36,622 nt of DNA from a virus (Duplodnaviria; Heunggongvirae; Uroviricota; Caudoviricetes), in the IMG/VR virus record IMGVR_UViG_2531839531_000013, positions 1 to 36,622 of that record; one strand, written 5' to 3'. The translations under genes and the position numbers were made by a program. The notes under the pieces were generated by a model. It was not told the origin of the DNA. It searched no databases and saw only the letters and a program-made list of their open reading frames with translations. This document shows, piece after piece, positions 40 to 35,221 of the stretch (the stretch's first letter is position 1; every line of letters begins with the position of its first letter).

Positions 40-402
40 GGGGCTGATTCTGGATTCGACGGGATTTGCGAAACCCAAGGTGCATGCCGAGGGGCGGTTG
101 GCCTCGTAAAAAGCCGCAAAAAATAGTCGCAAACGACGAAAACTACGCTTTAGCAGCTTAATAACCTGCTTAGAGCCCTCTCTCCCTAGCCTCCGCTCTT
201 AGGACGGGGATCAAGAGAGGTCAAACCCAAAAGAGATCGCGTGGAAGCCCTGCCTGGGGTTGAAGCGTTAAAACTTAATCAGGCTAGTTTGTTAGTGGCG
301 TGTCCGTCCGCAGCTGGCAAGCGAATGTAAAGACTGACTAAGCATGTAGTACCGAGGATGTAGGAATTTCGGACGCGGGTTCAACTCCCGCCAGCTCCAC
401 CA
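40..402 (+). ncRNA. ssrA: tmRNA (SsrA), complete, about 363 nt, ending in CCA
   Basis: Begins GGGGCTGATTCTGGATTCGACGGG and ends GGTTCAACTCCCGCCAGCTCCACCA; matches my memory of the E. coli tmRNA sequence, including the tag-reading-frame region. Confidence 0.95.
358..402 (+). repeat. attL core: 45-bp ssrA 3' end, identical to the copy at 35131..35175
   Basis: Exact 45-bp direct repeat ATGTAGGAATTTCGGACGCGGGTTCAACTCCCGCCAGCTCCACCA seen at both positions. Confidence 0.9.
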
Positions 403-510: not shown

Positions 511-1284
511 TTACAACTTAAAGAGTTTCGCTTGCCCTGGATTAACAGCTTCGACGTAGTTTTTGACCCCTATTCTGTGCGGCTCATAATTGCTTGAATA
601 GAAATCAATCAGGAAGTCACTCATTTTCTGAGATGTGACTTTCATAACTCCCTTACTCAAAGTTAAATTAAACACGCTAATCTTTGACGATGGTGCCTGA
701 GTTTTACTCATGTTGGCTTGATAACCAGATTTACGCATTGCCACTAGTGCTTCGTCGTAAGCCGCTTGTAATTGGGCCAAATCGTTTGACGAGATGATCA
801 CATCATCCATAAACACACTTAGCTTGAGATCATGATGTTTGTTCAATCGGCGTAGTAAGCTACCAAAATAACTTTTATCTAAGCAGAGGGTTGCAAGTAT
901 TGGAGATTGAACAAAACCAAAAGGGAGGACATGCTTATGTGGACTATGGGACAAGTTTCTTACAGTTGAAAATGTTGAGATTTCCCGCGCTTGAGAATAG
1001 GTGAAGTAGCTCTTTAGATCACGGGTGATACGACTACGGCTCGTTGACTGAAAAAATTGTTTAATATCAACAACGGCAAAAAAATCACTTTTTAAGTGTA
1101 ATCTGGCAGCTTTAAGATGCCCACCAGTTCTTAGATGGTAAAAATAGAGTGGCGGAATCCACTTGTTTCTGACATCCTGAAGTATCTTCCCTCCGACTTT
1201 ACGTGCCTCAACGCTTGGGACATAAACCCAAACCCCGGGCTTAATCTCAAATTTATCTTCCCACCTTTGAACTTCTATTGTCAT
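511..1284 (-). CDS. Compact reverse transcriptase (257 aa), retron-like; family not assignable by eye
   Basis: RT motifs in canonical order: VPSVEARKVGGKI (motif 1-like), FFAVVDIKQFF (motif 2), LPFGFVQSPILATL (motif 4), VFMDDVII (Y/FxDD catalytic motif), NMSKT (motif 6). AT-rich relative to the phage backbone. Confidence 0.8.
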   Translation of the reverse strand: MTIEVQRWEDKFEIKPGVWVYVPSVEARKVGGKILQDVRNKWIPPLYFYHLRTGGHLKAARLHLKSDFFAVVDIKQFFQSTSRSRITRDLKSYFTYSQAREISTFSTVRNLSHSPHKHVLPFGFVQSPILATLCLDKSYFGSLLRRLNKHHDLKLSVFMDDVIISSNDLAQLQAAYDEALVAMRKSGYQANMSKTQAPSSKISVFNLTLSKGVMKVTSQKMSDFLIDFYSSNYEPHRIGVKNYVEAVNPGQAKLFKL

Positions 1285-1996: not shown

Positions 1997-3097
1997 TCAT
2001 TCCATTTCGAGATCATCAACCTTCACTTCAAGCTCAAGACTGGTCGTAAAACCATTATCCGGGCTGACGGTATGTGTCAGAGTCGTAATGGTCCATTCCG
2101 CATCATCTATCGGCTGTTTAAAGCCACTGACTTTCACTGGCATTTCCGTGTAGAGATCTGCCCGCCCTTCCGCCAGTTGTAGCGAGAATGACGCAACGCC
2201 GCGTTGCAGGCGTTCCCACTGCATTTTCGCTGCCCGTTCAGCGTTGCTCCGGTTGGCATAAGTGCGATTAAGTACCAGCACGTTTTCATCCGTACCCACC
2301 AGGTAATCGCCCTGCTTCGCTTCCAGCTCTTTCTTCTGCTTCTTAGTCCTGCGCTTACGCTTCACCGTGGTGCTTTCTTTCTTCGCGGGTTCGCGGGTAT
2401 GCAACCAGCTGGCAATTATGCCCGTATAGGCTCCGCGATCTGCCAGGGTAAAGCGGTGACTGTCGCCGTCCTTACGTGTGATAGTGATCACCGGCAGTGG
2501 TTTACCGCTGGCACTTTTGCCCTGTCCCTGCCGGATGAATAACAGATTGCCATTTTTCACCGACGCAATAGCACCGTACTGGCGCGCCAGCCGCATCAGA
2601 AAACTACCGTCACTCTCATTAGTCTGGTCTATATGCTCCACGAGCTTATCCGACAGGTCTTTACCCAGTACCATCTTCAGCTTGTGCCGCGCGGCTATCT
2701 CCTTCACCACTTCCCCAATGGTGGTCTTGTGCCACGATTTTTCACGGCGGGTATTCAGCGTTTCCCGAAAATCAGCACTTCGCGCCCGGATAGTCAGGCG
2801 GTCCGGTGCGCCAGTGTGTTCAATCTCGTCCACCGTGAATGCCCCTTTCGGGAAAAGCGGCTGCCCCTTCCAGCCCAGCGCCAGCGTAATGACCGCACCA
2901 CGGCGCGGCAGCACGATTTTCCCGTCGGCATCGTCCAGCTCCAGATCAAGCTGGTCTGCTTCAAAGCCCCGATTGTCCGTCAGAGTCAGACTCATCAGGC
3001 GGTTATCCAGCACAGTGGTGATATCCCTGCCCTCAATACTGATGCTGAATGCCGGAGTTTTGTTGCTTTTGTTAAGCAGTTCAGAGCTGAAATTCAC
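1997..3097 (-). CDS. D: Tail protein D (late control D)
   Basis: 366 aa; position next to ogr and resemblance to P2 gpD as recalled. Confidence 0.85.
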   Translation of the reverse strand: MNFSSELLNKSNKTPAFSISIEGRDITTVLDNRLMSLTLTDNRGFEADQLDLELDDADGKIVLPRRGAVITLALGWKGQPLFPKGAFTVDEIEHTGAPDRLTIRARSADFRETLNTRREKSWHKTTIGEVVKEIAARHKLKMVLGKDLSDKLVEHIDQTNESDGSFLMRLARQYGAIASVKNGNLLFIRQGQGKSASGKPLPVITITRKDGDSHRFTLADRGAYTGIIASWLHTREPAKKESTTVKRKRRTKKQKKELEAKQGDYLVGTDENVLVLNRTYANRSNAERAAKMQWERLQRGVASFSLQLAEGRADLYTEMPVKVSGFKQPIDDAEWTITTLTHTVSPDNGFTTSLELEVKVDDLEME

Positions 3098-3579
3098 GAC
3101 AGCAGCCCTCCCACCGTTTTACTGATATCGCTTAAGGTAGACGTTGCCGTTTCCTGCAGATTATTCAGTTGCGCACTGAGATCACCGAACATATCGGACA
3201 GGGATTCATCCACCCGTTTGAGCGACAGGGTGAACTCAATCCGGCGCGGCATACCGTCGCGGAAAAACTCCGTTTTAGTCTGATTCAGTCCCTCAATCAC
3301 ATACATGCCATAAATCGTGCCGCTGCCTTCAATCAGGGGCCATGCTTTCCCCTGTTCTGCCATCTGCTCCAGTGCCAGCAACGACAGCCTGCCACCTGTT
3401 ATCTCCGGCATAAGAACACCGGAAAGCGTCAGCATGTCGTTGTCCGGTCCCAGAAACTGCGTGGACGGACGTCGGTTTACCCGGCTGTTTGCCGCATGTC
3501 GCCAGCTGCGTTGATACTGCAGCTCCTGATACGGCACGGTGCGCAGCATAAACACGTACAATCCCAGCACCATCATCAT
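3094..3579 (-). CDS. U: Tail protein U
   Basis: 161 aa between D and tape measure; overlapping stop/start coupling; P2 synteny. Confidence 0.8.
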   Translation of the reverse strand: MMMVLGLYVFMLRTVPYQELQYQRSWRHAANSRVNRRPSTQFLGPDNDMLTLSGVLMPEITGGRLSLLALEQMAEQGKAWPLIEGSGTIYGMYVIEGLNQTKTEFFRDGMPRRIEFTLSLKRVDESLSDMFGDLSAQLNNLQETATSTLSDISKTVGGLLS

Positions 3580-6500
3580 GCGTCGTATCCCCCCTGATCG
3601 CTGTAGTTACTCCTGGCTTTTGCCTTCAGCCTGCGTTCACGTTCATCAAGCTGGCGGGCCACCTCCCGCGCAATATCCTGCGCACTTTGTCCTGGCTGCG
3701 TCTGAATGATGATCTGCATCGGTGCCTCAATCCGTTGAACGGGCGGCACAGTGGCTGCACGACTCACCATCGCTTCGCCGCCTTTCGCGGGAAGTGCCAA
3801 AGGGTGCAACGGTGGAAGCTCTGCAGGCGCGGCAGCAACGCCCATCATTCCGGCAACAACGGCAGCCAGTGCAGCTGTATTTCTCCGGCTGGTCACATTT
3901 GCCGGGCCGTTAACAATTTCCGGCCCGTTTTCACCGACGATGCCAAACTGCCCGCGCGGGATATAGCCGCCGCTGTCATACATCCCCGCAAAGCCATATC
4001 CCCATGACGGAAAACCACCCGATGGCATCATCACTTTACCGTCTGCATTCACCGTCGCAGGTTGCTGACGCGTCACGCTTTCCGGCAGTTTCGCCTTTGC
4101 AGCCTCTTTACTGACAATGCCGAGTTTATCCAGCAACCAGGAAACGCCAGATTTCAGGGAGTCCAGCGGATGCATAACCATATTCAGCCCTTCCGCCAGT
4201 GCCTCCCCGAATCGTCGCCCCATTGCCGCTGCGCTCTGCAGTTCGGCAGAAGTCGACTTAACGGGCGTCAGCAGATCAGTAAACCAGCCCCACAGCGCCT
4301 GCACTTTGTCACCAATCCACTGGAACACAGGCTTAAGCGGTTCGAACGCTGCACTGATGGGACCTGCCGCCGCTTTGAATCCTTCCACCACGCCACCGAG
4401 AAATGCGGTGATGGGTTGCCAGTATTTCCAGACAACCAGTGCCACACCCGCCAGTGCAGTAACCACAAGACCTATCGGACTGAGCAGAGCACCTAACAGA
4501 CCAGATACGGTATACAGGGCAACGCGCAACATCGCCAGTGGACCAGATGCCAGTACTCGCAGCACCGTGCCTGCGGCAGCCAGCCCGCCGCGTAGTGCTG
4601 CCAGTGGATTCATAAACATCACAGCAACCGCACGTAAACCGGATAATCCAGACCGCAAAAGTGCAACCGGCGCACCTGCTACAGTTTTCAGGACATTTCC
4701 CGTCAGTGATGCCGTGCGGCGCAAAGACGACAACGGCGCAGTAAGTAAACCTGCGGCGTTGCCCGATGAAGCAAGCCCGCGTCGCAGCAGTGCCAGTGGT
4801 GCGCCAGCCAACCAGGACAACGCGCTGCTGGTTCGAGTTACTGCTGCCGTAACGGAAGATAACGTTTTGATACCCAACACAGAGAATCCCAGACGGATCA
4901 CTGCCAGCGGCCCCAGCACTGCAGCCAGCGCCACCGCTAAGGTGCCGAGGCCGACGGTAACCGCAGCCACAACAGCCGATGCTTTCATCAGTGTGCCTGT
5001 CAGTTCCGGGTTAGCTTCCACCCAGCGACGCAACGCCCCCGTGACGCTTTTCACCGTGTACAGAATATCCATCAGCGGCTGGCGCAGCGTTTCGCCCAGG
5101 CTGCTGAAGGTGTTCTGCGCTCCGGTTTTGACCAGCAACCACTGCGCAGAAAGTGAATCCTTGTTAATGTCGGATTCTTTCTGCATGGAGCCAAGCGCAT
5201 CATTGCCCGCTGTCAGTTTTAACTGACGCTGCAGTTCCGGCAGGTTGTTTGCCAGTTTCGCCGCGTCATCGCCAAACTCTTTACCAAACAACATAGTCAT
5301 GGCAGACAGGCGCTTGTCCTGCGGCAGCGCGTTTACCTTCTCCAGCACGCGCTGGATGGTTCCCATCGCATCCTTCGTCATCTGCTTTTCAATCACTTCA
5401 GGATTGAGTTTCAGCAGATTCATCCCTTCAAAGAAACTCTTGCTTTGCATGGTGGCAATGGACAATTCACGCACCATCGCGTTTGCTGCACTGGCTGCAA
5501 CCTCTGGCGCAGCGCCCAGTGTCAGGAAGGTGGAACCCAGCGCCGCCGCTTTACGATAATCCAGACGGTCAGCCACACCGCCCAGACGTTGCATCACATC
5601 AATGATGTCTGCCCCTTTCGACATGGCGTTATCATCCAGATAGTTCAGCGCATCACCGAGCTGTTCAATATTGCGGGTGGGGATTTTGTAGAGCTGGGCG
5701 ATTTTCCCCAGACTTTCTGACAGTTCATCCGCTGGCAGCTCAAAGGCTGTTGCCGCCTTTGCTGCCGTACTGGCGAAGGCCAGCAGGTCACGTTTCTGAT
5801 CTTCCCAGCTGTCGTCAGGGTTTGCGACGTTCATGCGCGCACCACCTTCAACCAGTGCAGCGAAGTCCACCGCACCGTTTTCCATCGGCAACTGTTCGCT
5901 GGCAGCCTTGATGGCATCCTGCATTTCATAAAAACGTGCAGTGCGGTTGCCATTATCGTCACGCAGACCATTGACCTGCTTTGCCACACCTTTCATGGCA
6001 TCTTCCATGCTGGTATAGCTTTTTACTGCCGCCATCACTGGCGCACCCATTGCCAGCCCTGCAGCCGTGGTGGTGGCTCCGGCACCTGCAATACGATCAC
6101 GCACCTCCAGCGAACGGGCATAACTGGCACGCGCTGCATTCATCCTGCGCTGAGCTTCCCCCAGTCGCTTCAGCCGCGCCTCCTGTTTCGAAAGTTCCTG
6201 GTTATAACGTGATGTTTCACGGGCTAAACGGGCAGTTGCTCCCGCATCGTCTTTCGCAGAAATTCCCGCCCGGTACAGTTCAGCACGCACAAGCGCCGTC
6301 TGCTGCTGCAGCTTTTTCTGGCGTTCTTCCAGGCGCTGAACAGCCAGCCGTTGACGGCCCAGAGCAACAACCTGACGTTGCGAAGGCGGCCCCATCGCTC
6401 CCAGTTCCTGACTGAGCAAATTTGCACGCTGGCGGGCATAGTTCAGCCTGTCGCCTAATTTCTGATTTTCTGCCTGCAGCTTTCGGAAGCTGTCCAGACT

Positions 6501-6653
6501 GCTCCCGGCCTGATCAAGCTGCTTTATTGCATCGCGGGATTTTTTGACAGCAGCAGCCAGTTCTCTTGAACTGGCCTGCGCAGATCGAAATGGGCGGGTG
6601 AGCTTGTCAACCGCATTAAGAATGACCTGCAGACGCAGGTTGTTATCACTCAT
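3576..6653 (-). CDS. T: Tail tape measure protein
   Basis: 1025 aa, coiled-coil N-terminal half and Ala/Gly/Leu-rich membrane-like repeats; P2 gpT position. Confidence 0.9.
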   Translation of the reverse strand: MSDNNLRLQVILNAVDKLTRPFRSAQASSRELAAAVKKSRDAIKQLDQAGSSLDSFRKLQAENQKLGDRLNYARQRANLLSQELGAMGPPSQRQVVALGRQRLAVQRLEERQKKLQQQTALVRAELYRAGISAKDDAGATARLARETSRYNQELSKQEARLKRLGEAQRRMNAARASYARSLEVRDRIAGAGATTTAAGLAMGAPVMAAVKSYTSMEDAMKGVAKQVNGLRDDNGNRTARFYEMQDAIKAASEQLPMENGAVDFAALVEGGARMNVANPDDSWEDQKRDLLAFASTAAKAATAFELPADELSESLGKIAQLYKIPTRNIEQLGDALNYLDDNAMSKGADIIDVMQRLGGVADRLDYRKAAALGSTFLTLGAAPEVAASAANAMVRELSIATMQSKSFFEGMNLLKLNPEVIEKQMTKDAMGTIQRVLEKVNALPQDKRLSAMTMLFGKEFGDDAAKLANNLPELQRQLKLTAGNDALGSMQKESDINKDSLSAQWLLVKTGAQNTFSSLGETLRQPLMDILYTVKSVTGALRRWVEANPELTGTLMKASAVVAAVTVGLGTLAVALAAVLGPLAVIRLGFSVLGIKTLSSVTAAVTRTSSALSWLAGAPLALLRRGLASSGNAAGLLTAPLSSLRRTASLTGNVLKTVAGAPVALLRSGLSGLRAVAVMFMNPLAALRGGLAAAGTVLRVLASGPLAMLRVALYTVSGLLGALLSPIGLVVTALAGVALVVWKYWQPITAFLGGVVEGFKAAAGPISAAFEPLKPVFQWIGDKVQALWGWFTDLLTPVKSTSAELQSAAAMGRRFGEALAEGLNMVMHPLDSLKSGVSWLLDKLGIVSKEAAKAKLPESVTRQQPATVNADGKVMMPSGGFPSWGYGFAGMYDSGGYIPRGQFGIVGENGPEIVNGPANVTSRRNTAALAAVVAGMMGVAAAPAELPPLHPLALPAKGGEAMVSRAATVPPVQRIEAPMQIIIQTQPGQSAQDIAREVARQLDERERRLKAKARSNYSDQGGYDA

Positions 6654-7136: not shown

Positions 7137-7652
7137 TCAGAGGCCGAGGGCGTTGCGGTGCGCTTCCATCAGGTCCACACCGTCCACAATTTCCACCATG
7201 TTGATAAGGTCCACTTCATAGAGCACCTCACCATTGATGGTCAGCTTCGCGTAGCTGTTGGTACTGGTCACTTTGGTGGTGTTGCTTTCGCCCGTCTTCC
7301 ACTCGCCGGAATCCACTTCTTTGTGACGTCCACGCACGACAAGCTCCACGGCCTGCACTTCCCCGGTATCGTCACGCTGAATAGAGCCGGTAAAGCGCAG
7401 CTGGATGCCATCCACCGTGGCTTTACCCATCTGTTTAAACAGCAGCAATTCAGTACCACCAATGGAAAATTCTGTGTCCAGCGCACTGTCATCAAGCCCC
7501 AGATCCACATCCACCGCACCCGGCATTCCGCCGCCGCGATACTTCTCATATTTGCGGGTAAATTTCGGCAGCGTCAGCGACTCAACGATCCCCTGCCAGT
7601 TGTTCCCGTCGTTAAACAGGTTCAGGTGTTTTAATTTGCGTGGTAATGCCAT
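7137..7652 (-). CDS. FII: Tail tube protein
   Basis: 171 aa; P2 gpFII-like sequence and position. Confidence 0.85.
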   Translation of the reverse strand: MALPRKLKHLNLFNDGNNWQGIVESLTLPKFTRKYEKYRGGGMPGAVDVDLGLDDSALDTEFSIGGTELLLFKQMGKATVDGIQLRFTGSIQRDDTGEVQAVELVVRGRHKEVDSGEWKTGESNTTKVTSTNSYAKLTINGEVLYEVDLINMVEIVDGVDLMEAHRNALGL

Positions 7653-7661
7653 GTTGTCCCC

Positions 7662-8834
7662 TTACGCGCTGACCTGGCTGGCGAAATTCACCAGGTACTG
7701 ATCGGTGATGCGCTGACGCAGCATCAGGTTTTCAAGTGGCGGCACTGGCGTGTAGTCGTAGTCGATGGTGAGTTTTCCGGCTTTCAGCGTGTCTTTGTCG
7801 TTCACCGACTCATCCAGCCAGCAATCACCACCAATGAGATAGCCCTGACTGACCAGGCTGCGCATTTTGGCGCGGATACCTTCGATAATGTCGCGGGCCA
7901 GCGACGGGTTAAGCGGTTTATCCACCGCCCACATGTGTGCTTCTGCCATCGTGTCCATCAGCACCTGCGCCGTGCGGGTGTAGTTTTCGAAGGCAAAGAG
8001 CGGGTCATCACTCAGGCAGCGGGAACCCCAGAAGCGGAAACCGTCTTTACGCACAAGCGTGGTAACGTCGTTCTGGTTCAGCAGACCTGCATCGGTTGCC
8101 GGGTCCTGCAGATCCCAGAACACATCTGCAGAAATTCCGGTGACACCGTTCACGCCCACGTTGGACAGGCTTTTGTGCCATCCGGTCTGCTCGTCAATTT
8201 TGGCGCGCAGACCAAGCGCACGGGCGGTGGCATATGCCGTTGCTTCGGCATTCAGCACCGTGTCCCAGCCAGTAAAGTCAGGCCAGATCAGCATCCCTTC
8301 GCGCTGGCTGAAGTTTTCACGGTAAGTGATCGCCTCCTGCACTGTCTTGCAGCCATACGCTGACAGGTAAGCAAATCCACGCAGGCTTTGCGCCACGCTC
8401 AGCAACTCAGTAGCTACCGCCTTGGTGTCGTGGCCTGGCACGCCGAGAATGCGCGGTTTAACGCCGAGCTGTGACTGGGCAGATAACAGGGCTTTCATAC
8501 CTGTTTTTTTACCTTCAGCAGTCACTGCGCCGATGATATTGGTCGTGGTTTCGTCTTCCGTTTCACCCTGCGGCACACGCACAACAATGGTCACGGGTTT
8601 TGCCTGGTCAGCGATGGCATCCAGCGAACGGGCCAGAGTACCTGACTCACCCGCTTTACCGCTGGCAGTCAGCACATCAGTGATCAGCACGGGTTTATTA
8701 AGAGGAAACATTTTTGCATCGGCATCATCGCCCGTGCAGACCATACCCACGATGGCGGTGCTCACCGTGGTAATAGATCGGGTGCCTTCGTTGACTTCAA
8801 CAACGCGCACCCCGTGGTGGTAATCCTGAGCCAT
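7662..8834 (-). CDS. FI: Contractile tail sheath protein
   Basis: 390 aa; P2 gpFI-like sequence and position. Confidence 0.9.
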
Positions 8835-8910
8835 AGTGGCGAACCTCCTGATTGGATTAGGCTTCGCCCTATGTTGAAGTGATTGTGCCTGACAAACAGC
8901 TAAGCGCAGT

Positions 8911-8928
8911 TGTGTCGTTATTCACACA
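8911..8928 (-). promoter_or_regulatory. Candidate Ogr-dependent late promoter element (TGT-N12-ACA) upstream of FI
   Basis: TGTGTCGTTATTCACACA, centred about 85 nt upstream of the FI start codon. Confidence 0.5.
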
Positions 8929-8976
8929 AAATAACGGTATTTGTCTGCTTGCAGGGATAATCAACATAATGCTGAT

Positions 8977-9549
8977 TCAGGGGGATTCATTGATCTTATT
9001 TGCCGGAAATTTTCTATAAATGGTAGAAACGCCTACATCAAAAATCAGTGCAATACGCTGTCTTGATTCTCCGGCCTCGAGTAAACGCCCAATCTGTGCC
9101 CACTGTTCGGTGGTCAACTTAGGACGGCGTCCACCTACTCTGCCTTTGGCACGAGCTGCAGCCAGCCCTGCCCTGGTACGTTCAACTATCAGTTCGCGTT
9201 CCATTTCAGCCAGGGCACCCATGACATGAAAAAAGAAACGGCCCATTGGGGTACTGGTATCAATACTGTCAGTCAGGCTTCTGAAATTCACACCACGCTG
9301 GCGCAACTCTTCTATCAGCGTAACAAGATGCCGCATACTGCGCCCCAACCTGTCCAGCTTCCAGACAACCAGCGTGTCTCCTGCCGATAGTGTCCTGAGT
9401 AGTTTTTTCAGCCCCGGTCTGTCGGACTTAGTGCCACTGATTTTGTCCTCAAAAATCTGCTCACATCCCGCGCAGTTCAGTGCATTACGTTGCAAATCGG
9501 TGTTCTGGTCATTTGTTGACACGCGTACATAGCCAATAAGCATGATCAT
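8977..9549 (-). CDS. Serine recombinase, DNA invertase (Cin/Gin/Hin family)
   Basis: MLIGYVRVSTNDQNTDLQRNAL... closely resembles Cin/Gin as recalled, with C-terminal HTH. Start at 9549 or 9543. Confidence 0.9.
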   Translation of the reverse strand: MIMLIGYVRVSTNDQNTDLQRNALNCAGCEQIFEDKISGTKSDRPGLKKLLRTLSAGDTLVVWKLDRLGRSMRHLVTLIEELRQRGVNFRSLTDSIDTSTPMGRFFFHVMGALAEMERELIVERTRAGLAAARAKGRVGGRRPKLTTEQWAQIGRLLEAGESRQRIALIFDVGVSTIYRKFPANKINESP

Positions 9550-9570
9550 CCCCCTGAATAAAAACCGGAG

Positions 9571-9954
9571 ATGATGCCAGTTAGCTGTTACCTCTGCATT
9601 TTCTTAAACGTTGGTTTGGGAGAAGCCAGATATGTCATTCAGCGAGGAGCTAATGCCAATGGTGCGTGGATACGCTGGTCAGATGGTGCAATAGAAGTCT
9701 TTGGAACGGGGGGTTCTAATGATAATGGACTGGCTAAAGTCGTTTATCCAATTGCGCTACCTAAGCTTTCACGTTTTATCAGCATAGCGGAAAGAATAGG
9801 AACGGATTATGGGGGCACATCTAATAATGTTCACGTTTCAATGATCGTGGATGACCAGGTCACTAATACCGGTTTTTATGTCCGCTGCCAGATGTACGAC
9901 GGAACACCATCAACAAGTGCTTTTTCCTGGAGGGTTTATTGTGCGCCTGTTTAA
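9571..9954 (+). CDS. Alternative tail-fibre C-terminal segment, promoterless in this orientation
   Basis: ORF reads through the crossover site (encodes FLNVGLGEA, parallel to TYLGLGEG in H) and continues 110 codons to a stop. Confidence 0.45.
   Translation: MMPVSCYLCIFLNVGLGEARYVIQRGANANGAWIRWSDGAIEVFGTGGSNDNGLAKVVYPIALPKLSRFISIAERIGTDYGGTSNNVHVSMIVDDQVTNTGFYVRCQMYDGTPSTSAFSWRVYCAPV
9599..9624. repeat. Invertase crossover site (hix/gix/cix-like), distal copy
   Basis: Its reverse complement TTCTCCCAAACCAACGTTTAAGAAAA shares a 14-nt arm with the site at 11210..11235 in inverted orientation. Confidence 0.6.
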
Positions 9955-10138
9955 TCCTGTTACTTTGACTGAAGTAATCCCCGGTCTTCATGACGTGACC
10001 GGGGCTGTTGAATTACCAGAAGATAACTGGTTTTTTACTGCATCTGAAATCCCTGAAGGAATGGAAATATCTGTTAACGAGAAGGGAGAACCCATTCTGA
10101 TTGAGATTAAACCGTCTCAGGAGGAACTGGCCAGATGA
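9941..10138 (+). CDS. Short alternative tail-fibre assembly chaperone fragment
   Basis: Starts at GTG overlapping the upstream stop (VRLFNPVTLTEV...); only about 66 aa. Weak call. Confidence 0.3.
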   Translation: MRLFNPVTLTEVIPGLHDVTGAVELPEDNWFFTASEIPEGMEISVNEKGEPILIEIKPSQEELAR

Positions 10139-10712
10139 CATCTGGCGCGGTGCTGGTATCTGTTGCCATCACCGCGTCAGTGTAATCCAGCACGGCGTTA
10201 AGTCGGGTGTTTTCTGCCTGCGTCAGCTTCCGCCCGGCCTGCAATTTCAGTTGAATCAGACTAATGGAAACCATTGCAGCATCAATCAGCGACTGCCGCT
10301 GTGTTTCTGCCATGTCTACTGCTGCTCTATGCTGTGCCTCGGTATCCGTCACCCATTTCTCACCATCCCATTTATCGTATGGCGTTAACGGGGCGATAGT
10401 GGTTGTCTTTTCAGGGTAATCACCCGGAGCTGTGATTTCTTTTGATTCTCCTGTTTCGGTGCTATAGACGATTTCACCGCGATGGTCTGGCACATATTCC
10501 CATGAGTTAAAATCTGCAGAACGGCAAATTGCATAACCAGCTTTATATGAGCCAGGAGCATCTAAACAGGAACATGCCGGGATACCGACACCCACAGCAA
10601 GATATTCGGTTGATGTGGAAATATATTCTCGTGTTTCACCATCATAATTATAAACAGTAATATCTCCCGCCTTTGTGGCGATGAGTTCCTTATTTAATAT
10701 AGCTTTATCCAT
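10107..10712 (-). CDS. G: Tail fibre assembly chaperone (gpG / Tfa family)
   Basis: 201 aa immediately downstream of H with ATGA overlap; Tfa-like C-terminal region. Confidence 0.8.
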   Translation of the reverse strand: MDKAILNKELIATKAGDITVYNYDGETREYISTSTEYLAVGVGIPACSCLDAPGSYKAGYAICRSADFNSWEYVPDHRGEIVYSTETGESKEITAPGDYPEKTTTIAPLTPYDKWDGEKWVTDTEAQHRAAVDMAETQRQSLIDAAMVSISLIQLKLQAGRKLTQAENTRLNAVLDYTDAVMATDTSTAPDVIWPVPPETV

Positions 10713-12271
10713 CAGGCAGCCCTCACGATATAATTAAAGGCAATGTTACGGGGTCGATTTTCGTTTGCAGTTGGAACAATTCTTGAAGCATCAAGGCCAA
10801 TCACTTTTGGGTAAACACTGCCCTCGGACCTTTCTGTCACCATACTTCTGACTAAGGAGAAATAACTATTGTTCGTTGAGGGGTTCAAAGGCACCACTGC
10901 CCCCTTAAACGAGCCTACTGATTCCCATATTGAATAATTTTCGGTGTTTACAGTCTTGAACTCACCATAGATATTACGTATGGCATCGCCCTGAGCGGAT
11001 AATATTGTTCTCCCCGCATCCGCACTACGCCCATCATCCCAGCCACGAATAAATTCACCGCGTAAATCAGGCAATTTATTTGTCGGGTAAGCCTTTGCCA
11101 GTTCCGGGTATTCTTCAGCAGAAAAAGCCGCACCATTGCATTTCAGCCAGCCTGTCGGCGGAGTGGCGGAAGGCCACGGAACAGGCACACCGACAGGTAA
11201 TGCAGAGCCTTCTCCCAAACCAAGGTATGTGAGAAGACCAGCTACATCCTTTCCACTCAAATTGGTAAGCGTATTGTCCAGCGGTTGTTTACCTGCCAGC
11301 GCATTAAGCATTGTCGTGGCAAAGTTCGGATCATTCCCCAGTGCCGCCGCCAGTTCGTTCAGTGTATCCAGTGCAGCAGGTGCAGAACCCACCATTCCTG
11401 CAATCGCCGATTTCACAAAAGCCGTAGTGGCAATCTGTGTATTGTTGACCGACTGCGCCGCCGTGGGGGCTGTTGGCGTTCCGGTGAGTGCCGGACTCGA
11501 CAACGGTGCTTTTAGTGCCAGCGCATTGTTAATGGTGGTACTGAAATTCGGATCATTGTTAATGGCTGCGGCTATTTCTTTCAGCGTGTCCAGCGTGGCT
11601 GGCGCACCATTAATAAGGGCCGTCAGTGCCGCCTGTACAAACGCAGTGGTCGCAACCTGCGTGGTATTATTCCCCGCCGCTGGCGTTGGCGCTTTGGGGG
11701 TTCCGGTAAATGTCGGGCTGGCTTTTGGCGCGTACTGTGAATGCGGGTCCGGTGCGGCAAGATGTTTTGCCATCTGATCATCCGCGTAAACCTTCAGCTC
11801 CAGTGCCTTGTCATCCACATACTTGCGGGTTGCCAGCACTACAGCAGGGTCGATTTTCAGGGTGATATTGTCCGTGCTGCTGGTAATCAGCACCATGCGC
11901 ACGGTCTGAGTGCGCCCGCTACCTTCAGCCAGTTGCGGCTTATAGCTTTCCGGGCAGTTGCCCACGGCAATCAATGCCCCGGACTCATCAAACAAGCCCA
12001 CTTCACGTATCCACCAACCGCCCTCGTTTTCAGGGATCACCTGTTCGGCAATAATCTGGCTGCTGTTCTGCGGGTCGATATAAAGCATATTCAGCGCAGC
12101 CCGGCGTTTCTCATTTACCAGTGCCGTCTGCTTTGCGTCTGGCGTTGGCAATACTCCACCGCCATCGCCCACCGCCATATGGGTAATTTTTAGCGGCACA
12201 CCGAGCGCGGCGGCGCTGGCAAGTTTCGCCGCGCCAATATCCGTCAGCAGGGTATAAAATTTTGTGCTCAT
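10712..12271 (-). CDS. H: Tail fibre protein H (constant N-terminal part plus currently fused variable C-terminal part)
   Basis: 519 aa; N-terminus MSTKFYTLLTDIGAAKLASAAA resembles P2 gpH; Ala/Thr-rich repeats; crossover site lies inside the gene. Confidence 0.9.
   Translation of the reverse strand: MSTKFYTLLTDIGAAKLASAAALGVPLKITHMAVGDGGGVLPTPDAKQTALVNEKRRAALNMLYIDPQNSSQIIAEQVIPENEGGWWIREVGLFDESGALIAVGNCPESYKPQLAEGSGRTQTVRMVLITSSTDNITLKIDPAVVLATRKYVDDKALELKVYADDQMAKHLAAPDPHSQYAPKASPTFTGTPKAPTPAAGNNTTQVATTAFVQAALTALINGAPATLDTLKEIAAAINNDPNFSTTINNALALKAPLSSPALTGTPTAPTAAQSVNNTQIATTAFVKSAIAGMVGSAPAALDTLNELAAALGNDPNFATTMLNALAGKQPLDNTLTNLSGKDVAGLLTYLGLGEGSALPVGVPVPWPSATPPTGWLKCNGAAFSAEEYPELAKAYPTNKLPDLRGEFIRGWDDGRSADAGRTILSAQGDAIRNIYGEFKTVNTENYSIWESVGSFKGAVVPLNPSTNNSYFSLVRSMVTERSEGSVYPKVIGLDASRIVPTANENRPRNIAFNYIVRAA
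11210..11235. repeat. Invertase crossover site (hix/gix/cix-like) inside H
   Basis: TTCTCCCAAACCAAGGTATGTGAGAA; resembles the recalled hix consensus TTCTTGAAAACCAAGGTTTTTGATAA. Confidence 0.6.
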
Positions 12272-12873
12272 GGATTCACTCTCATTGTGTCAATAACATG
12301 GACCGCCCCGCCTTCATGCGCGGTGCCACCGGAAATAATCGTTTCGTTGATATACGGATAGATCGTGATTTCTTCGCCAAGATAGCTGGCGGCTCCCACC
12401 CAATGCGGGCCGCTGGTCTGCAGATTGATGGACATGCCGATCATGTGGCGGCTACATGGTTTGGCATCGCTTATCAGTCGCTCAAGTTCCAGATAGGTAT
12501 CTTCAGTGATGCCCTGGTCCTGCACGCCGATATCCAGGCGAAACGTGCCCGGTGTTTCTCCGGTCTGCCACCACTCAATAATGCGGATCAGGAATCCGAA
12601 CGGCTCCACCACCCGCCGCACGGCACTGGTGGTCCCTTTATGCTGATGAATATAAAAAGCATCCTTCACCACCTGGCGCTTGACGCTTTCTGTCCAGCCC
12701 TCGTCCCAGCGATCCACAGAGAACGCCCAGGCGAGATAAGGCAGGAAACTGACCGGACAGGTTGCCGGATTCCACAAGTCACGAAGCGGCACCTGCAGAT
12801 CAGAAATCCCGCTGCAGGTTTGCGCCAGTCGGCGCTCCAGTGGTGTTGAACCCGGTGGCAGCAGACTATTCAT
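12268..12873 (-). CDS. I: Baseplate assembly protein I
   Basis: 201 aa; P2 synteny and sequence character. Confidence 0.8.
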   Translation of the reverse strand: MNSLLPPGSTPLERRLAQTCSGISDLQVPLRDLWNPATCPVSFLPYLAWAFSVDRWDEGWTESVKRQVVKDAFYIHQHKGTTSAVRRVVEPFGFLIRIIEWWQTGETPGTFRLDIGVQDQGITEDTYLELERLISDAKPCSRHMIGMSINLQTSGPHWVGAASYLGEEITIYPYINETIISGGTAHEGGAVHVIDTMRVNP

Positions 12874-13774
12874 CCGTTCCTCCGTTGGTTACGCTCCACT
12901 GCGTACATGATGCCGCCTGTGTTTTGTTCAGGACCACATCTGCCAGAGGAGAAGCCAGCTCCACACGCTGCACACCCTCAACATGCAGGGCGGCAAAGAT
13001 GGCGCTACGGCGAATATCCCGACCAAGACGCGTCTGACTGGCGATGTACTTCTGCAGGCTGGCTTTTGCCGCTGCCATTACCGGCTCTGCTTCTGGCCCC
13101 GGATAGAGAAAAATGGTGGCTTCCACGCGGTACGGGATGATTTCTGCACTGCGAACCGTAAGACGGTCAGCCACCGGGCGGACGTTCTCACTGTTCAGGG
13201 CTTTCTCCACCACATCCAGCAGGTCTTTTTCTGCTGTTCCGTCGCCTTCGCGGCTCAGAACAGTCAGCACCACCTCTGCAGGTGCCGGGCTGGTTGCACT
13301 GGCATCCGCCACCCGACCGTCGGCGCTTCGGGCATGAAATTCATAAGCTGCAGTTGGCCCCGCAACTGAAAGCCCTTCAAAGGCTGCTGGCACACGCAGG
13401 CGTAACGCTTCATCACTTTCCATCACAGCCGCAACGGGCGGTACAGCGTCATTATCAGCAGGCGTCACCGTCAGGCGTTTCACGTTGTAATTGGCAGCGA
13501 GCTGGTCCAGATCGCTCCCTATGGCATAAGCCACCATCACCGCCTGCGCGGCTTCGTTAATGCGCTGGCGCAGAAGCAACTCACGGTAAGCGTTCTCCTG
13601 CAACAATTTGGTAACGGGTTCAGATTCCAGTTCCAGCGTACGCATCACTGCTTCCTGCTCATCTTTCGGATGAAGCGCCACAAATTCTGCCTTGCGTTCG
13701 GCAAGCAGCGTCTCAAAGTCCGTCACATCCACAATCTGCGGCGCAGGTAACTGCGAAAGGTCAATCACTGCCAT
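12866..13774 (-). CDS. J: Baseplate protein J
   Basis: Start taken at MAVIDLSQLPAPQIV, which resembles the P2 gpJ N-terminus; ORF track extends to 13813. Confidence 0.85.
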   Translation of the reverse strand: MAVIDLSQLPAPQIVDVTDFETLLAERKAEFVALHPKDEQEAVMRTLELESEPVTKLLQENAYRELLLRQRINEAAQAVMVAYAIGSDLDQLAANYNVKRLTVTPADNDAVPPVAAVMESDEALRLRVPAAFEGLSVAGPTAAYEFHARSADGRVADASATSPAPAEVVLTVLSREGDGTAEKDLLDVVEKALNSENVRPVADRLTVRSAEIIPYRVEATIFLYPGPEAEPVMAAAKASLQKYIASQTRLGRDIRRSAIFAALHVEGVQRVELASPLADVVLNKTQAASCTQWSVTNGGTDE

Positions 13775-14120
13775 TCTCTGCTCCTGTTGATACGGAAAGG
13801 GAAACAGGCACACCGTTATTACGCCGCCCGGTCAGCTCCACCACCATAGAACCGTCAAAGTTGCTGTTGATGGTGATGGAATCAAGCGTCAGCCGTGGCT
13901 CCCAGCGACTCAGCGCCACATACACTGCCGACATGACCTGCAGGCGTAATGCCGGATTTTGTGGCTGGTCTATCAGTGCCGACAGCAGGGAACCATATTC
14001 CCGACGGGCAATGCGGCTACCCTGCGGTGTCAGCAGAATGTCCCGCACCGACTGGCGCAGATGATCAATATCAGTAATGACTTTGCCGCTGGCATTGTTC
14101 ATCCCGCTATAAAGCGTCAT
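13761..14120 (-). CDS. W: Baseplate wedge protein W (gp25-like)
   Basis: 119 aa; P2 gpW-like. Confidence 0.8.
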   Translation of the reverse strand: MTLYSGMNNASGKVITDIDHLRQSVRDILLTPQGSRIARREYGSLLSALIDQPQNPALRLQVMSAVYVALSRWEPRLTLDSITINSNFDGSMVVELTGRRNNGVPVSLSVSTGAENGSD

Positions 14121-28374: not shown

Positions 28375-29228
28375 GCACGTACTCCGTACACGGCAGAACT
28401 GTCCACGCCACGCGAATAATCAAATCCCACCCAGCAGCGCGGCCCGGAAACAGCAATGATTTCTGTTGCTGATTTACCCTCGCCAGCTGCCACACCGATG
28501 CTGCGTTTTGCTTTGATGTAGTGGTGGGTGAAATTGCGATACAACGAACGGATCAGGGATGTGTCACTGTTAGAAACAATGACCGGATGTCCTTCTGATA
28601 ACCGATGTTCAAGAACGGATGCCAGGTGATACTGGTCATCTTCAGTGAAACCATCAGTGTGATAGCCGGAAAACGTACCGTCATACGGCGGATCGCAATA
28701 CACCACATCCCCCGCCTTCAACATCGCCAGCGTTTCATCAAAGCTGGCGCAGATAAACGTTGCTCGCTGGGCTTTTTCTGCAAATGCGCGAATTTCTTTT
28801 TCAGGGAAATACGGATTTTTATAATTACCGTAGGGAATGTTGAAATGCCCGCTCTTGTTATAGCGACATAAACCACGGTAACCGTGACGATTGAGATACA
28901 GGAAATATACCGCTTTCATGAAATCAGTAATTTCAGTTGAGTAATTAAACTCCTGCCTTATGTTGTAATAAGCCACCTCCCTGTTTGCTTCCTCAAATAA
29001 AGCTCTGGCGCGAGATATAAACGATTCACAATCAGCAGCAACCTTTTTATAGAGGTTGATTAAATCAGGATTAATATCCGCAACAAGATAGCTGGGGTAC
29101 TCCGTCTCCATCATCACAGCACAGGAACCCGCGAAAGGTTCAACCAGTCGCGGGCCAGCAGGAAGATGCTTTTTCAGTTCGGACATAATGGCGGTTTTAT
29201 TTCCCGCCCATTTCAGGATGGTGCTCAT
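28371..29228 (-). CDS. DNA N6-adenine methyltransferase (Dam-like)
   Basis: N-terminal KWAGNK...EPFAGS and catalytic DPPY motifs; start taken at [15 protein letters not shown]-coupled to the upstream gene. ORF track extends to 29288. Confidence 0.85.
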
Positions 29229-29452
29229 ACAGCACCTCCGTTGTAATGTTTGCCTTTCAGCTCTGCGATTTCCTGACAGGTAATGCAAAGCTGCACACCC
29301 GGAATGGCGCGGCGGCGTGCTGGCGGAATTGGCGCTTCACACTCAATGCAAAGCACGCGGGACACGCCCGGCGTTTTGGCACGGGCAGAACGGATATGGC
29401 GCTGGCGTTCTTCTTCAACGCGCTGCTGTACGAGATCCATTGCATCAGCCAT
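29225..29452 (-). CDS. TraR/DksA-type C4 zinc-finger protein
   Basis: CIECEAPIP...CITCQ four-cysteine arrangement; 75 aa. Confidence 0.7.
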   Translation of the reverse strand: MADAMDLVQQRVEEERQRHIRSARAKTPGVSRVLCIECEAPIPPARRRAIPGVQLCITCQEIAELKGKHYNGGAV

Positions 29453-33201: not shown

Positions 33202-34938
33202 CTACTCAAGAAGATATTCTAACTCATCTTTTATCGGGATAACTTGCTCATAAAGTCGGTGATATGACTTCCCAATTGCGCCTCTGAATTGTATTAACTT
33301 TGGTGGCTTGTTACCTATATTAATAATATGGTCTTGAGCTATACCTGGGTAGGGATCAATAAATACAATTTCAGATATACCTAACTGATAAGCTTTTTTC
33401 GCACACAGCTCACAGGGACTGGCAGTTGTATATAACCTCCCCCCCTGAACGCCAATGCCACCATATTTTGCAAGTTGTAAAAATGCGTTTTCCTCAGCAT
33501 GTAATGCACGTGTATGAACTTGATTACCTTTTTTATCTTTATCAAGATCATTATGTATATCTTTAAAACAATAAGATAAGTTCCTGCCTCTATAAATATC
33601 ACCAGTTTTATCTATCGCCCTAAAATTTAATAGTTTCTCATTAGCTTTAATTCTGAAAGAACTATTATTTCTCTCATAATGACTGTACACTTTTTCATCA
33701 AAGTCGTTCATTAGGCCATCTAGCGATCTCATAGAGCAAGGAATCTGACCGTTGGCGACATCATTCCAACCCACTGATTTTATTGAATTTTCACCATCAG
33801 TTACTACAGCTCCCACCTGTCTAGATATACAACCAGAGTTTAATTTTACCGTATACGCAACTTGCATAACCCTTTCCATTGCAGTAGGTGTTATCAGACC
33901 AGGATGCTTCATCAGTGCGATGTACCACGCTAATTGTGCTTTTAAAATATTGTCATTATCAAATTCATTTTTTGGGTTAAAAATGTGTATATCTGATAGT
34001 TCAATGCATTTAGTTACATTTGGATTAGTGAGATGTTTGTAAGAGTTATCACCTTTACCTGACTCTACAGAATCTATTTCCTCTATCTGCTTTTCAGAAA
34101 ACTTATGTAGTTTCCGCAAATAGTTTGTTCGATGTTCATCTGGGGCATTTATTGACATTAAATGAAATGCAGAATATCTATCCTTAAAAAATTTTGCTTC
34201 ATATGGATTTCTAATAGCATCTATGACAATTAATGCGTTATCTCTTTTGCTTTTTCTTATTAATTTAATAACCCTATTAATAGTTTCCGGCAAATGAAAA
34301 ACAGATTTAGGTATAAACTCTTTATCTTCAAAATCGACTTCAATACGCCCACGGCGTCTAATTGACTTACCTGCTAACTGATAGACTGAAACATATAAAT
34401 TTGAGTTTATCGCATTTAGTTCAGCTTTGAATTCCTTAGTAAATTTTCTAACTAACCTCAAAATTGATATAAATTTATTAATCGTTTTTTCATTAAGCTT
34501 CAATTCACTATTATGATCAAGCAAATTCTCAATTACATTTTTAAATCTTGTTAAAATGAGATTATCTGAAAATACACCAAAAGTTAATACATTATCTAAA
34601 TGCTCTTTACTGATAGATTTATTAGATGATAGAATAAACTCAGAAGCTTCTTCAACTGTTAACATCAAAAGATACGCTGAGATTAGGTCACTCACCTTAA
34701 TTGAGTAAAAATTTTCCCAGTGATTTTCTGCGAATTTTTTAACTATATTATAACGATGGACATCCAATCCCTTGTAAAAACCCTGTAATTTACTTACATC
34801 AGGGAAGACTGTTTTTTCGTTTTCAAGAATATTAGCTGTTGTTGTGCAACCAGAACCAGTTCGACCTGTCAAACCGACTAAAATAAACTGCCCATTTTCA
34901 AGGAAAAGCTCACTAACGAATTTTTTTTCTTTCATCAC
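33202..34938 (-). CDS. P-loop NTPase/kinase-like domain fused to a cytidine/dCMP deaminase domain (AvcD/DCD-like)
   Basis: N-terminal glycine-rich loop VGLTGRTGSGCTT; C-terminal zinc-deaminase signature HAEENA ... SPCELCAKK; 578 aa; very AT-rich. Confidence 0.75.
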   Translation of the reverse strand: MMKEKKFVSELFLENGQFILVGLTGRTGSGCTTTANILENEKTVFPDVSKLQGFYKGLDVHRYNIVKKFAENHWENFYSIKVSDLISAYLLMLTVEEASEFILSSNKSISKEHLDNVLTFGVFSDNLILTRFKNVIENLLDHNSELKLNEKTINKFISILRLVRKFTKEFKAELNAINSNLYVSVYQLAGKSIRRRGRIEVDFEDKEFIPKSVFHLPETINRVIKLIRKSKRDNALIVIDAIRNPYEAKFFKDRYSAFHLMSINAPDEHRTNYLRKLHKFSEKQIEEIDSVESGKGDNSYKHLTNPNVTKCIELSDIHIFNPKNEFDNDNILKAQLAWYIALMKHPGLITPTAMERVMQVAYTVKLNSGCISRQVGAVVTDGENSIKSVGWNDVANGQIPCSMRSLDGLMNDFDEKVYSHYERNNSSFRIKANEKLLNFRAIDKTGDIYRGRNLSYCFKDIHNDLDKDKKGNQVHTRALHAEENAFLQLAKYGGIGVQGGRLYTTASPCELCAKKAYQLGISEIVFIDPYPGIAQDHIINIGNKPPKLIQFRGAIGKSYHRLYEQVIPIKDELEYLLE

Positions 34939-35130: not shown

Positions 35131-35175
35131 ATGTAGGAATTTCGGACGCGGGTTCAACTCCCGCCAGCTCCACCA
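35131..35175 (+). repeat. attR core: displaced original ssrA 3' end
   Basis: Identical to 358..402 and followed by the native ssrA terminator. Confidence 0.9.
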
Positions 35176-35221
35176 AAATTCTCCATCGGTGATTACCAGA
35201 GTCATCCGATGAAGTCCTAAG

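Follow-up and report, generated by a model that had tools for sequence, protein, structure and literature searches.

The stretch of DNA analysed here (the window; 36,622 nucleotides) contains a P2-like prophage inserted beside ssrA. Genes for capsid, terminase, portal, lysis, replication protein A, CI, CII and integrase are all found in it, and the prophage looks complete. Between the tail-fibre-assembly gene G and the sheath gene FI lies a gene for a DNA invertase of 188 amino acids (8977..9543, minus strand).

The invertase open reading frame is intact, and its product contains the Pfam domains Resolvase (E 2e-53) and HTH_7 (E 1.5e-15). It matches phrog_125 (DNA invertase) with an E-value of 8e-102 and the sequence of the Gin crystal structure 3uj3 with 3e-93, whereas the match to gamma-delta resolvase reaches only 6e-34. 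The motif VRVSTNDQ aligns with the active site of Gin, and the catalytic serine is present. Judged by its sequence, which is closer to known invertases than to resolvases, the enzyme is a member of the Gin/Cin/Pin family. Protein identity is 83.5% to PinE, 76.6% to Cin and 74.5% to Gin; the initial annotation had described a Cin-like invertase, which holds for the family, but the closest classical relative is Pin of the e14 element and not Cin. The start codon, previously placed at 9549, is likely to be the ATG at 9543, 6 nt further in, giving a protein (MLIGY...) of the same 188 residues as Gin, Cin and Pin; the second in-frame ATG, at 9549, would add two residues.

In Hin, the residues K47, K/R48, K/R51, Q151, R154 and L155 provide the contacts with Fis and the enhancer, and they are conserved only in Fis-dependent invertases (McLean et al., 2013, PMC3798978). 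All of these residues are kept in the window invertase, as read from alignments in which its stretches RPGLKKLLRTL and EQWAQIGRLLE align with RPGLKRALKRL and AEWEQAGRLLA of Gin. Inversion would be expected to depend on Fis, and the invertase coding sequence probably contains a Fis enhancer near its 5′ end (9454..9525, minus strand; gene nucleotides 19-90), which the initial annotation had overlooked. The P1 record places the Cin enhancer at nucleotides 19-90 of cin, and the corresponding stretch of the window is identical to cin at 56 of 72 positions and to pinE at 63 of 72, compared with gene-wide identities of 70% and 77%, respectively. The putative enhancer was placed by homology to this P1 stretch because a scan with a simple Fis consensus (G at −7, C at +7 and an A/T-rich centre), covering the first 260 nt of the window invertase gene and of Mu gin, returned many weak candidates and no clear pair.

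Two crossover sites of 26 bp flank the segment beside the invertase gene. Site L, proximal to the invertase (9599..9624; TTTTCTTAAACG TT GGTTTGGGAGAA, core TT at 9611-9612), and site R, within the tail-fibre gene H (11210..11235; TTCTCCCAAACC AA GGTATGTGAGAA, core AA at 11222-11223), are both built as 12 + 2 + 12, with imperfect inverted 12-bp half-sites around a 2-bp core. Their plus-strand cores are TT at L and AA at R; the sites are inverted, so that the core dinucleotides match, and the reverse complement of site R reads TTCTCACATACC TT GGTTTGGGAGAA. They coincide with an inverted repeat of 27 nt (9599-9625 and 11209-11235; 81% complementary) that has the exact common arm TTGGTTTGGGAGAAG, 14 nt being the part common to both 26-mers. 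Inverted-repeat statistics alone were unconvincing as evidence, since 41 of 300 shuffled versions of the window contained an exact 15-nt inverted repeat within 5 kb; a second, unrelated pair is present in the window at 5645/7702. The significance of the sites therefore rests on their hix-type identity and not on the rarity of the repeat. A palindromised hix-type consensus, allowing up to three mismatches, has its sole window match at 11210-11235 and none in 100 shuffles, and AAACSWWSGTTT matches the window only at 9606-9617. When up to seven substitutions are allowed, the hix-type consensus recovers only sites L and R in the window, and elsewhere exactly the annotated Mu and P1 crossover sites plus two pix-like sites of the e14 P segment. 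Site L is identical at 25 of 26 positions to the e14 site adjoining pinE, and it lies 55 nt upstream of the invertase start codon, 54 nt being the commonest spacing among relatives. The two sites are accordingly read as hix/gix/cix/pix-type sites. A third crossover site, as in a multi-state shufflon, was also sought, and none was found when the full consensus was allowed up to three mismatches and the common arm up to two.

The constant N-terminal part of the tail fibre H (residues 1-350; 11222..12271, minus strand) lies outside the invertible segment and carries the Pfam domain Phage_tail_fib at residues 1-150. In the present orientation it continues into the currently expressed variable tip, which is of the collar/StfE type (10712..11221, minus strand; GLGE plus 165 amino acids). 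Pfam places a Collar domain at residues 361-408; the tip resembles T4 gp37 and short tail fibres in sequence, and at the nucleotide level it is 93% identical to e14 stfE over the 5′ part of that gene. The partner of this tip, likewise expressed in the present orientation, is a tail fibre assembly protein of the TfaE type (201 amino acids; 10107..10712, minus strand; Pfam Caudo_TAP, E 7e-30; phrog_105), the gene for which is approximately 90% identical in nucleotide sequence to e14 tfaE. Site L precedes a silent alternative tip on the opposite strand (9613..9954, plus strand; GLGE plus 109 amino acids), which is gp53-like: it matches phrog_2557 with an E-value of 9e-16, and Pfam Gp53-like_C weakly and below the cut-off (E 5e-4). 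The silent tip is followed by an open reading frame of 65 amino acids (9941..10138, plus strand) that starts with GTG, has a GGAGG 8 nt upstream and overlaps the tip's end by 14 nt. No promoter-like site was found by consensus scan in front of either tip.

Inversion in silico joins the 350 constant residues and the common GLGE in frame to the other tip, yielding a fibre of 463 amino acids in place of the 519 as sequenced, with residues 1-354 common to both. The arrangement proposed in the initial annotation is upheld by these scans, with inverted 26-bp hix-like sites sharing a 14-nt arm, one of them inside gene H and the other before a silent, opposite-strand tip without a promoter-like site; its exchange of about 165 for 110 amino acids is computed here as 165 versus 109 beyond GLGE. 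The same annotation had not mentioned that inversion also exchanges the gene after the tip, the 201-aa assembly protein for the 65-aa ORF.

The segment inverts in elements that are 97% identical to that of the window. Native and in-silico-flipped queries each match Escherichia coli genomes end to end and in one piece, with 53 genomes carrying at least 80% of the query in the native form and 34 in the flipped form. The 97%-identical elements are carried by two near-isogenic pairs of E. coli genomes, all of them complete and the pairs independent of each other. DG342-2 and DG341-1 are identical over 9.4 kb, save that the 1583 bp enclosed by the common arms are exactly reverse-complemented, with no mismatches, and M7424 and M11957 differ by the same exact 1583-bp inversion and one SNP in the flank. 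The breakpoints fall inside the predicted 26-bp sites. Sites L and R are both identical in DG342-2, the invertase of which differs from that of the window at four of 188 residues, none of them catalytic; site R has one substitution in M7424. In drafts of other Enterobacterales, the contig breaks off within 160 nt upstream of the gene at 18 of 68 invertase loci, and among the contig ends listed we count at least 11 that fall inside the 26-bp site, a pattern expected when the sequenced DNA holds both orientations. For the P2-like prophages of E. coli E2348/69, Goldberg et al. (2014, PMC4272514) report that such invertible loci flip in cultured cells and that both orientations are found together.

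RefSeq fibre genes at this position are of 1560 nt (519 amino acids) or 1392 nt (463 amino acids) in opposite orientations, and a phage tail protein of 463 amino acids is called here in a flipped E. coli genome. The stranded tip of flipped genomes is called a separate ‘phage tail protein’ by RefSeq; in the native orientation, the silent tip is without annotation or called a ‘hypothetical protein’.

Very probably, then, this P2-like prophage carries a functional inversion switch with two states, belonging to the Hin/Gin/Cin/Pin type. In the proposed mechanism, invertase dimers would bind both 26-bp sites and assemble with host Fis on the enhancer within the 5′ end of the invertase gene; both sites would be cut at the central TT/AA dinucleotide, and rotation and rejoining would invert the segment from 9612 to 11222, approximately 1.6 kb. 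Transcription of the late operon would always include the 5′ constant part of H, and orientation would select the 3′ end and the downstream gene that are read. The sequenced orientation would give a 519-aa fibre bearing the collar/StfE-type tip, along with the 201-aa assembly protein, and the flipped one a 463-aa fibre bearing the gp53-like tip, along with the 65-aa ORF. A population of lysogens would then release particles of two receptor specificities, a role in host-range switching that we propose by analogy with the family. Only one orientation is visible in the single window sequence, and flipping in the strain of the window itself is inferred. As an invertase with two 26-bp sites that swaps a tail-fibre tip, the switch is ordinary and belongs to a well-known class; its sole uncharacterised component is the 65-aa ORF. 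The switch accounts for the RefSeq gene calls at the locus and for the contig breaks here in draft assemblies and has little importance outside annotation. To users of P2-like prophages or tailocins it is a warning that a lysogen would yield two particle types.

Among known systems, the P segment of e14 with Pin in E. coli K-12 is closely similar, as reflected in the identities of PinE and of its proximal site noted above. Its StfE-type tip and TfaE-type assembly module are alike at approximately 90-93% DNA identity, and the order is the same: invertase, site, two convergent modules of tip and partner, site, and constant fibre part. In contrast to the complete-looking P2-like myovirus prophage of the window, e14 is labelled a cryptic prophage in the K-12 record, and its second module is StfP/TfaP rather than a gp53-like tip with a 65-aa ORF. 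The G segment of Mu with Gin and the C segment of P1 with Cin share with the window a small serine invertase (74-77% identity), 26-bp sites with an AAACC..GGTTT core, and a constant fibre part with alternative tips that each have their own downstream gene; the enhancer region in the 5′ part of the invertase gene is a further, putative resemblance. Their segments are larger (Mu, about 3 kb; P1, 4.2 kb; window, 1.6 kb), and both of their alternatives include a full-length U-type assembly protein, whereas one alternative of the window has the 65-aa ORF only. Apart from the assembly protein, the window modules are unrelated in sequence to the tips of Mu and P1. The loci of the E2348/69 P2-like prophages, likened here by description, agree with the window in the type of element, the type of prophage and the species group, although one of these loci comprises three sites and can adopt four states (PMC4272514), compared with two sites in the window. 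Finally, Escherichia phage 500465-1 (Wadgaonvirus, NC_049342) is 100% identical in invertase and proximal site (window 8900-9626) and 98.9% identical in the constant part of H, but its silent module consists of another tip and a full-length assembly protein of 147 amino acids.

Three other explanations bear on this reading. Inversion could mainly benefit the lysogen, if the fibre protein of one orientation were made in the prophage state and blocked adsorption of other phages. There is a precedent in e14, for which Kirigo et al. (2025, PMC12529663) report such a block by StfE2 once PinQ has inverted the P segment, and the pix site (25/26) and stfE/tfaE (90-93% nucleotide identity) of that element are close to the window parts. 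The prophage of the window looks complete, however; its fibre genes belong to a P2-type tail cluster, within the late operon, and no promoter-like site precedes either tip. Under P2 late control, transcription of the late operon is not expected in a lysogen. We consider a main benefit to the lysogen improbable; it does not exclude a host-range role, with which it is compatible.

A frozen relic, in which the parts look intact but no flipping occurs in the strain of the window (for example because the invertase is not expressed) and only the 519-aa fibre is made, is very improbable. It would agree with the single orientation of a single sequence and with the consensus scan, which found no promoter for the invertase; yet weak expression is usual among invertases of the Hin/Gin/Cin/Pin type. 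Translation might also be limited by a perfect 12-nt complement within the invertase mRNA, between the surroundings of its ribosome-binding site and those of its stop codon, where 5′-3′ pairing in the window lineage is strong at −25 kcal/mol. This pairing was dropped as a real feature, as it is not conserved in the wider family: among 63 wider relatives the true pairing, at −18.5 kcal/mol, is no better than that of mismatched pairs, at −17.5 kcal/mol. Moreover, the intact invertase is 100% identical to that of the isolated phage 500465-1, and the sites are identical to those of DG342-2, the segment of which is flipped in the near-isogenic DG341-1.

Fifteen base pairs are too short for efficient homologous recombination. 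It is barely credible that faulty assembly, or rare RecA-mediated recombination between short repeats, produced the opposite orientations found in public genomes: the repeats are indeed short, and chance alone can yield an exact 15-nt inverted repeat, but two independent pairs of complete genomes carry an exact, mismatch-free inversion bounded by 15-nt arms, these arms are hix-type sites beside an invertase, many draft-genome contigs break within the site, and such loci have been reported to flip in culture (Goldberg et al., 2014, PMC4272514).

Within the two-state switch, a U/Tfa-type assembly gene follows one tip (Caudo_TAP) and the 65-aa ORF follows the other. The ORF belongs to a family that is conserved across Enterobacterales, mostly with 57-65 amino acids and with a few gene calls up to 90. 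It has no Pfam or NCBIfam match, its link to assembly proteins comes from phrog_188 alone and is weak (E 4e-4), and it is without the conserved C-terminal DTS..P...WP motif of Tfa proteins. Its predicted fold is confident (pLDDT 89.5), and no solved structural relative of this fold was found. In a Kosakonia P2-like prophage without an invertase, a homologous tip and small ORF are the only fibre module, the homologue of the 65-aa ORF occupying the position of gene G with no full assembly gene, which argues that the alternative module works on its own. The silent tip region is 66% identical to the C-terminal approximately 209 residues, tip included, of the uninterrupted fibre of this prophage. 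A Yersinia prophage has the same pair of tip and ORF with the same 14-nt overlap.

The ORF could be a truncated assembly gene. This was rejected as the main reading because the length of 57-65 amino acids is mostly kept down to about 60% identity and in many genera, and it is also countered by the lone occupancy of the gene-G position in Kosakonia. Conservation of sequence and, for most members, of length across genera, the constant 14-nt overlap and the sole occupancy of that position lead us instead to suggest, tentatively and at somewhat less than even confidence, that the 65-aa ORF is a minimal partner for gp53-like tips and does the job of the usual assembly protein of about 200 amino acids. 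If so, the switch would alternate between two routes of fibre maturation and not between receptor specificities alone. Infectivity of the flipped-state particles is putative, as the alternative tip comes without a canonical assembly protein. Should a minimal fibre-assembly factor be wanted, the 65-aa ORF would be a cheap experimental target. The module of tip and small ORF is nearly absent from isolated phage genomes, a point against the proposed working switch: among 50,697 records, the tip occurs in three and the small ORF in two.

The fibre locus of this P2-like prophage carries a DNA invertase gene and a segment bounded by two inverted 26-bp crossover sites, and it belongs, in mechanism and membership, to the Hin/Gin/Cin/Pin family of switches. 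A repeat finder returned arms at 9599-9625 and 11209-11235 (27 nt, 81% complementary), within which both sites can be read from the sequence with a layout of 12 + 2 + 12. Site L, proximal to the invertase (9599..9624), is TTTTCTTAAACG TT GGTTTGGGAGAA, and site R (11210..11235), in reverse complement, is TTCTCACATACC TT GGTTTGGGAGAA. The core and one half-site are common to both (14 nt within the sites, 15 nt in all), in agreement with the 14-nt arm described in the initial annotation. On its own, an exact 15-nt inverted repeat carries little weight: 41 of 300 shuffled windows contain one within 5 kb, and a second, unrelated exact 15-nt inverted pair is present at 5645/7702; it is the nature of the sites that counts. 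Site R is the sole match in the window to the palindromised consensus at three mismatches or fewer (0 in 100 shuffles), and site L the sole match to the core motif AAACSWWSGTTT. When up to seven substitutions are allowed, the consensus picks out precisely the gix sites at the annotated G-segment boundaries in Mu, the cix sites centred on the annotated crossover points in P1, two pix-like sites in the P segment of the E. coli K-12 element e14, and sites L and R in the window, where neither consensus nor shared-arm scans found a third crossover site.

The reading frame of fibre gene H (10712..12271, minus strand) passes through site R as ...L-T-Y-L-G-L-G-E, and a plus-strand ORF runs through site L as ...N-V-G-L-G-E, continuing in frame to 9954. 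One site therefore lies within H and the other opens an alternative, silent tip (9613..9954), before which a scan found no promoter-like site, as had been suggested. With 9613..11221 flipped in silico, the reading frame stays open and gives a 463-aa fibre that has residues 1-354 in common with the present 519-aa fibre, after which 109 different residues replace 165; the predicted exchange of about 165 residues for a 110-aa tip is thus reproduced almost to the residue. The present tip (10712..11221, minus strand) contains a Collar domain and is similar to T4 gp37 and to short tail fibres, and its DNA, together with that of the 201-aa Caudo_TAP (Pfam) assembly protein (10107..10712, minus strand), is ~90-93% identical to stfE/tfaE of e14. 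The silent tip is gp53-like (phrog_2557, E 9e-16; Pfam match under its cut-off); the annotation of one relative reads 'gp53-like domain-containing protein'.

The invertase ORF (8977..9549) has Resolvase and HTH_7 domains (Pfam) and is likely to start at the ATG at 9543, since this gives MLIGY... as in Gin, Cin, Pin and RefSeq calls in relatives. The sequence of the Gin crystal structure matches it at E 3e-93, and the active-site serine is present. The protein is 100% identical to that of Escherichia phage 500465-1; identity is 83.5% with PinE of e14, 76.6% with Cin and 74.5% with Gin, which makes Pin rather than Cin the closest classical relative. Residues conserved only in Fis-dependent invertases comprise Hin K47, K/R48 and K/R51 in helix B, and Q151, R154 and L155 in the DNA-binding domain (McLean et al., PMC3798978); alignments match all six positions in the window invertase. 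The stretch homologous to the Cin enhancer (cin nt 19-90 in the P1 record annotation) is 9525..9454, a candidate recombinational enhancer whose identity is 78% with cin and 87.5% with pinE, compared with 70% and 77% for the whole gene. In a simple Fis-consensus scan of the first 260 nt of this gene and of Mu gin, weak candidates were numerous and none formed a clear pair of sites.

Several features surround this gene. Between the proximal site and the start of the invertase, the leader contains a conserved TGGCAT...GG(C/T)TTTT element (9563..9582, minus strand), flagged as terminator-like by a scan and common to Mu gin and many invertase loci from other Enterobacterales; it may act as a promoter, an attenuator or a binding site. 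A perfect 12-nt inverted repeat brackets the ORF (8975-8986 and 9548-9559), and the ribosome-binding region of the mRNA, AUUCAGGGGGAU, could form a duplex of about -25 kcal/mol with the stop-codon region, AUCCCCCUGAAU. Close relatives retain the repeat, E. coli NCTC8623 with one matching double change; across 63 wider relatives the pairing is not conserved and is therefore lineage-specific or due to chance.

Inversion can be seen in related genomes. The native 3.4-kb stretch aligns end to end with E. coli genomes at ~97% identity, as does its in silico flipped counterpart; the native form is present at a single place, to the extent of 80% or more, in 53 genomes and the flipped form in 34. The chromosomes of DG342-2 and DG341-1 (5,067,659 bp each) differ across 9.4 kb at the locus solely in 1583 bp between the shared arms, which are exact reverse complements of each other (0 mismatches), and the same exact inversion distinguishes M7424 from M11957, with one flank SNP. 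Both sites of DG342-2 are identical to those of the window, and 4 of the 188 residues of its invertase are different. Both orientations, rather than only one, are thus detected in ~97%-identical elements; the observation of the initial annotation is confirmed and its interpretation as a switch, one of a well-known kind, is supported, although flipping in the window's own strain remains less certain than in these relatives. Coexisting orientations of such loci have been described in P2-like prophages of E. coli E2348/69 (Goldberg et al., 2014, PMC4272514). Among 80 invertase loci fetched from other Enterobacterales, a hix-like site with the consensus TTCTCCCAAACCAAGGTTTTAGAGAA mostly lies 54 nt before the invertase start codon (55 nt in the window). 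Eighteen contigs stop <160 nt upstream of the invertase and at least 11, from the listed contig ends, within the 26-bp site, a pattern that a mixture of the two orientations in the sequenced DNA would produce.

In the 4.943-Mb record of E. coli NCTC8623 (NZ_LR134234.1), the same P2-like tail locus occurs near either end, at 13.4 kb and at 4.934 Mb, with the same protein accessions for 11 of 16 genes and scattered frameshifts. The invertible segment points in opposite directions in the two copies, which looks like the result of a circular overlap left untrimmed, with each orientation captured from a single culture. Divergence between the window (8900..12300) and DG342-2 is uneven: the lower value in the segment (0.5%, 8/1583 nt) than in the invertase (3.7%) or constant H (5.4%) suggests that the segment was recently exchanged as a cassette.

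The likeness to e14 extends to the proximal site (25/26 identical) and the common StfE/TfaE module. Phage 500465-1 has the identical invertase and a different silent module. A role in lysogen defence has been reported for PinQ and StfE2 of e14 (PMC12529663), but for inversion here such a role is an unlikely alternative and unsupported, because the fibre genes belong to a late operon for the tail in a prophage that appears complete. Its minus strand carries the baseplate/tail genes D (1997..3097), U (3094..3579), I (12268..12873) and J (12866..13813), H itself, and the tape measure (3576..6653), tube (7137..7652) and sheath (7662..8834) genes, with the inversion locus between the assembly and sheath genes; after these come genes for capsid, terminase, portal, lysozyme, replication protein A, CII, CI and integrase.

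The sole departure of the switch from the textbook G, C and P segments is that one module is without a U/Tfa-type gene. The silent tip is instead followed by a 65-aa ORF (9941..10138, plus strand; GTG start, GGAGG 8 nt upstream) that overlaps its end by 14 nt. Its product differs from canonical assembly proteins: it has no match in Pfam or NCBIfam and is without the C-terminal motif common to Mu, P1-type and P2-type assembly proteins; it matches phrog_5400 over the first 66 positions only, and phrog_188 weakly. Its family, mostly of 57-65 aa with a few longer gene calls, is conserved to ~60% identity in Escherichia, Enterobacter, Kosakonia, Cronobacter, Hafnia, Citrobacter, Yersinia and Salmonella, and has an N-terminal motif MRLFNP followed by ELP.DNWFF. 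In many Enterobacterales, in P2-like as well as lambdoid prophages, its members without exception come after a gp53-like tip and overlap it by 14 nt. A Kosakonia P2-like prophage has at the H position a fibre 66% identical over the C-terminal ~209 residues (tip included) and at the G position a 61-aa family member, with neither an invertase nor another assembly gene at the locus. In a Yersinia prophage this tip and ORF, again overlapping by 14 nt, come after a lambda-J-type tail-tip gene. By these arrangements the module stands alone, and the flipped form of the switch is probably functional. The predicted structure of the 65-aa protein is confident (pLDDT 89.5); a search found no solved structural relative, and the best named viral match was a 60-aa 'tail fiber assembly protein' (E 0.12). 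The ORF may encode a minimal fibre-assembly partner. Among 50,697 phage records, the silent tip has three matches and the small ORF two.

The prophage adjoins ssrA (tmRNA gene, 40..402) at the left edge of the window; tmRNA is the only RNA family that an Rfam search returned for the window. The last 47 bp of ssrA are repeated exactly at 35131..35177, so the inserted DNA seems to reach ~35.2 kb and to consist of the P2-like prophage and a further gene past its P2-type integrase. A 578-aa protein encoded between the integrase and the repeat (33202..34938, minus strand) strongly matches a dCTP-deaminase anti-phage defence model (E 3e-145). Between ssrA and the D/U end lies a 257-aa reverse transcriptase (511..1284, minus strand; RVT_1; best defence-library match retron-type RT_VI, E 8e-18), which may be retron-like cargo. 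The interval from the portal gene to replication gene A contains genes for a DUF4145 protein, with a weak PD-T7-4 match, and for a 239-aa product without assignment (23522..25251, minus strand). These and a Dam-like orphan adenine methyltransferase farther along (28371..29288, minus strand) look like typical variable cargo of P2-like phages. Just past the repeat begins a second tyrosine integrase, with a P4-type arm-binding domain (35381..36622, plus strand, running to the window edge), which suggests another island in tandem at ssrA.
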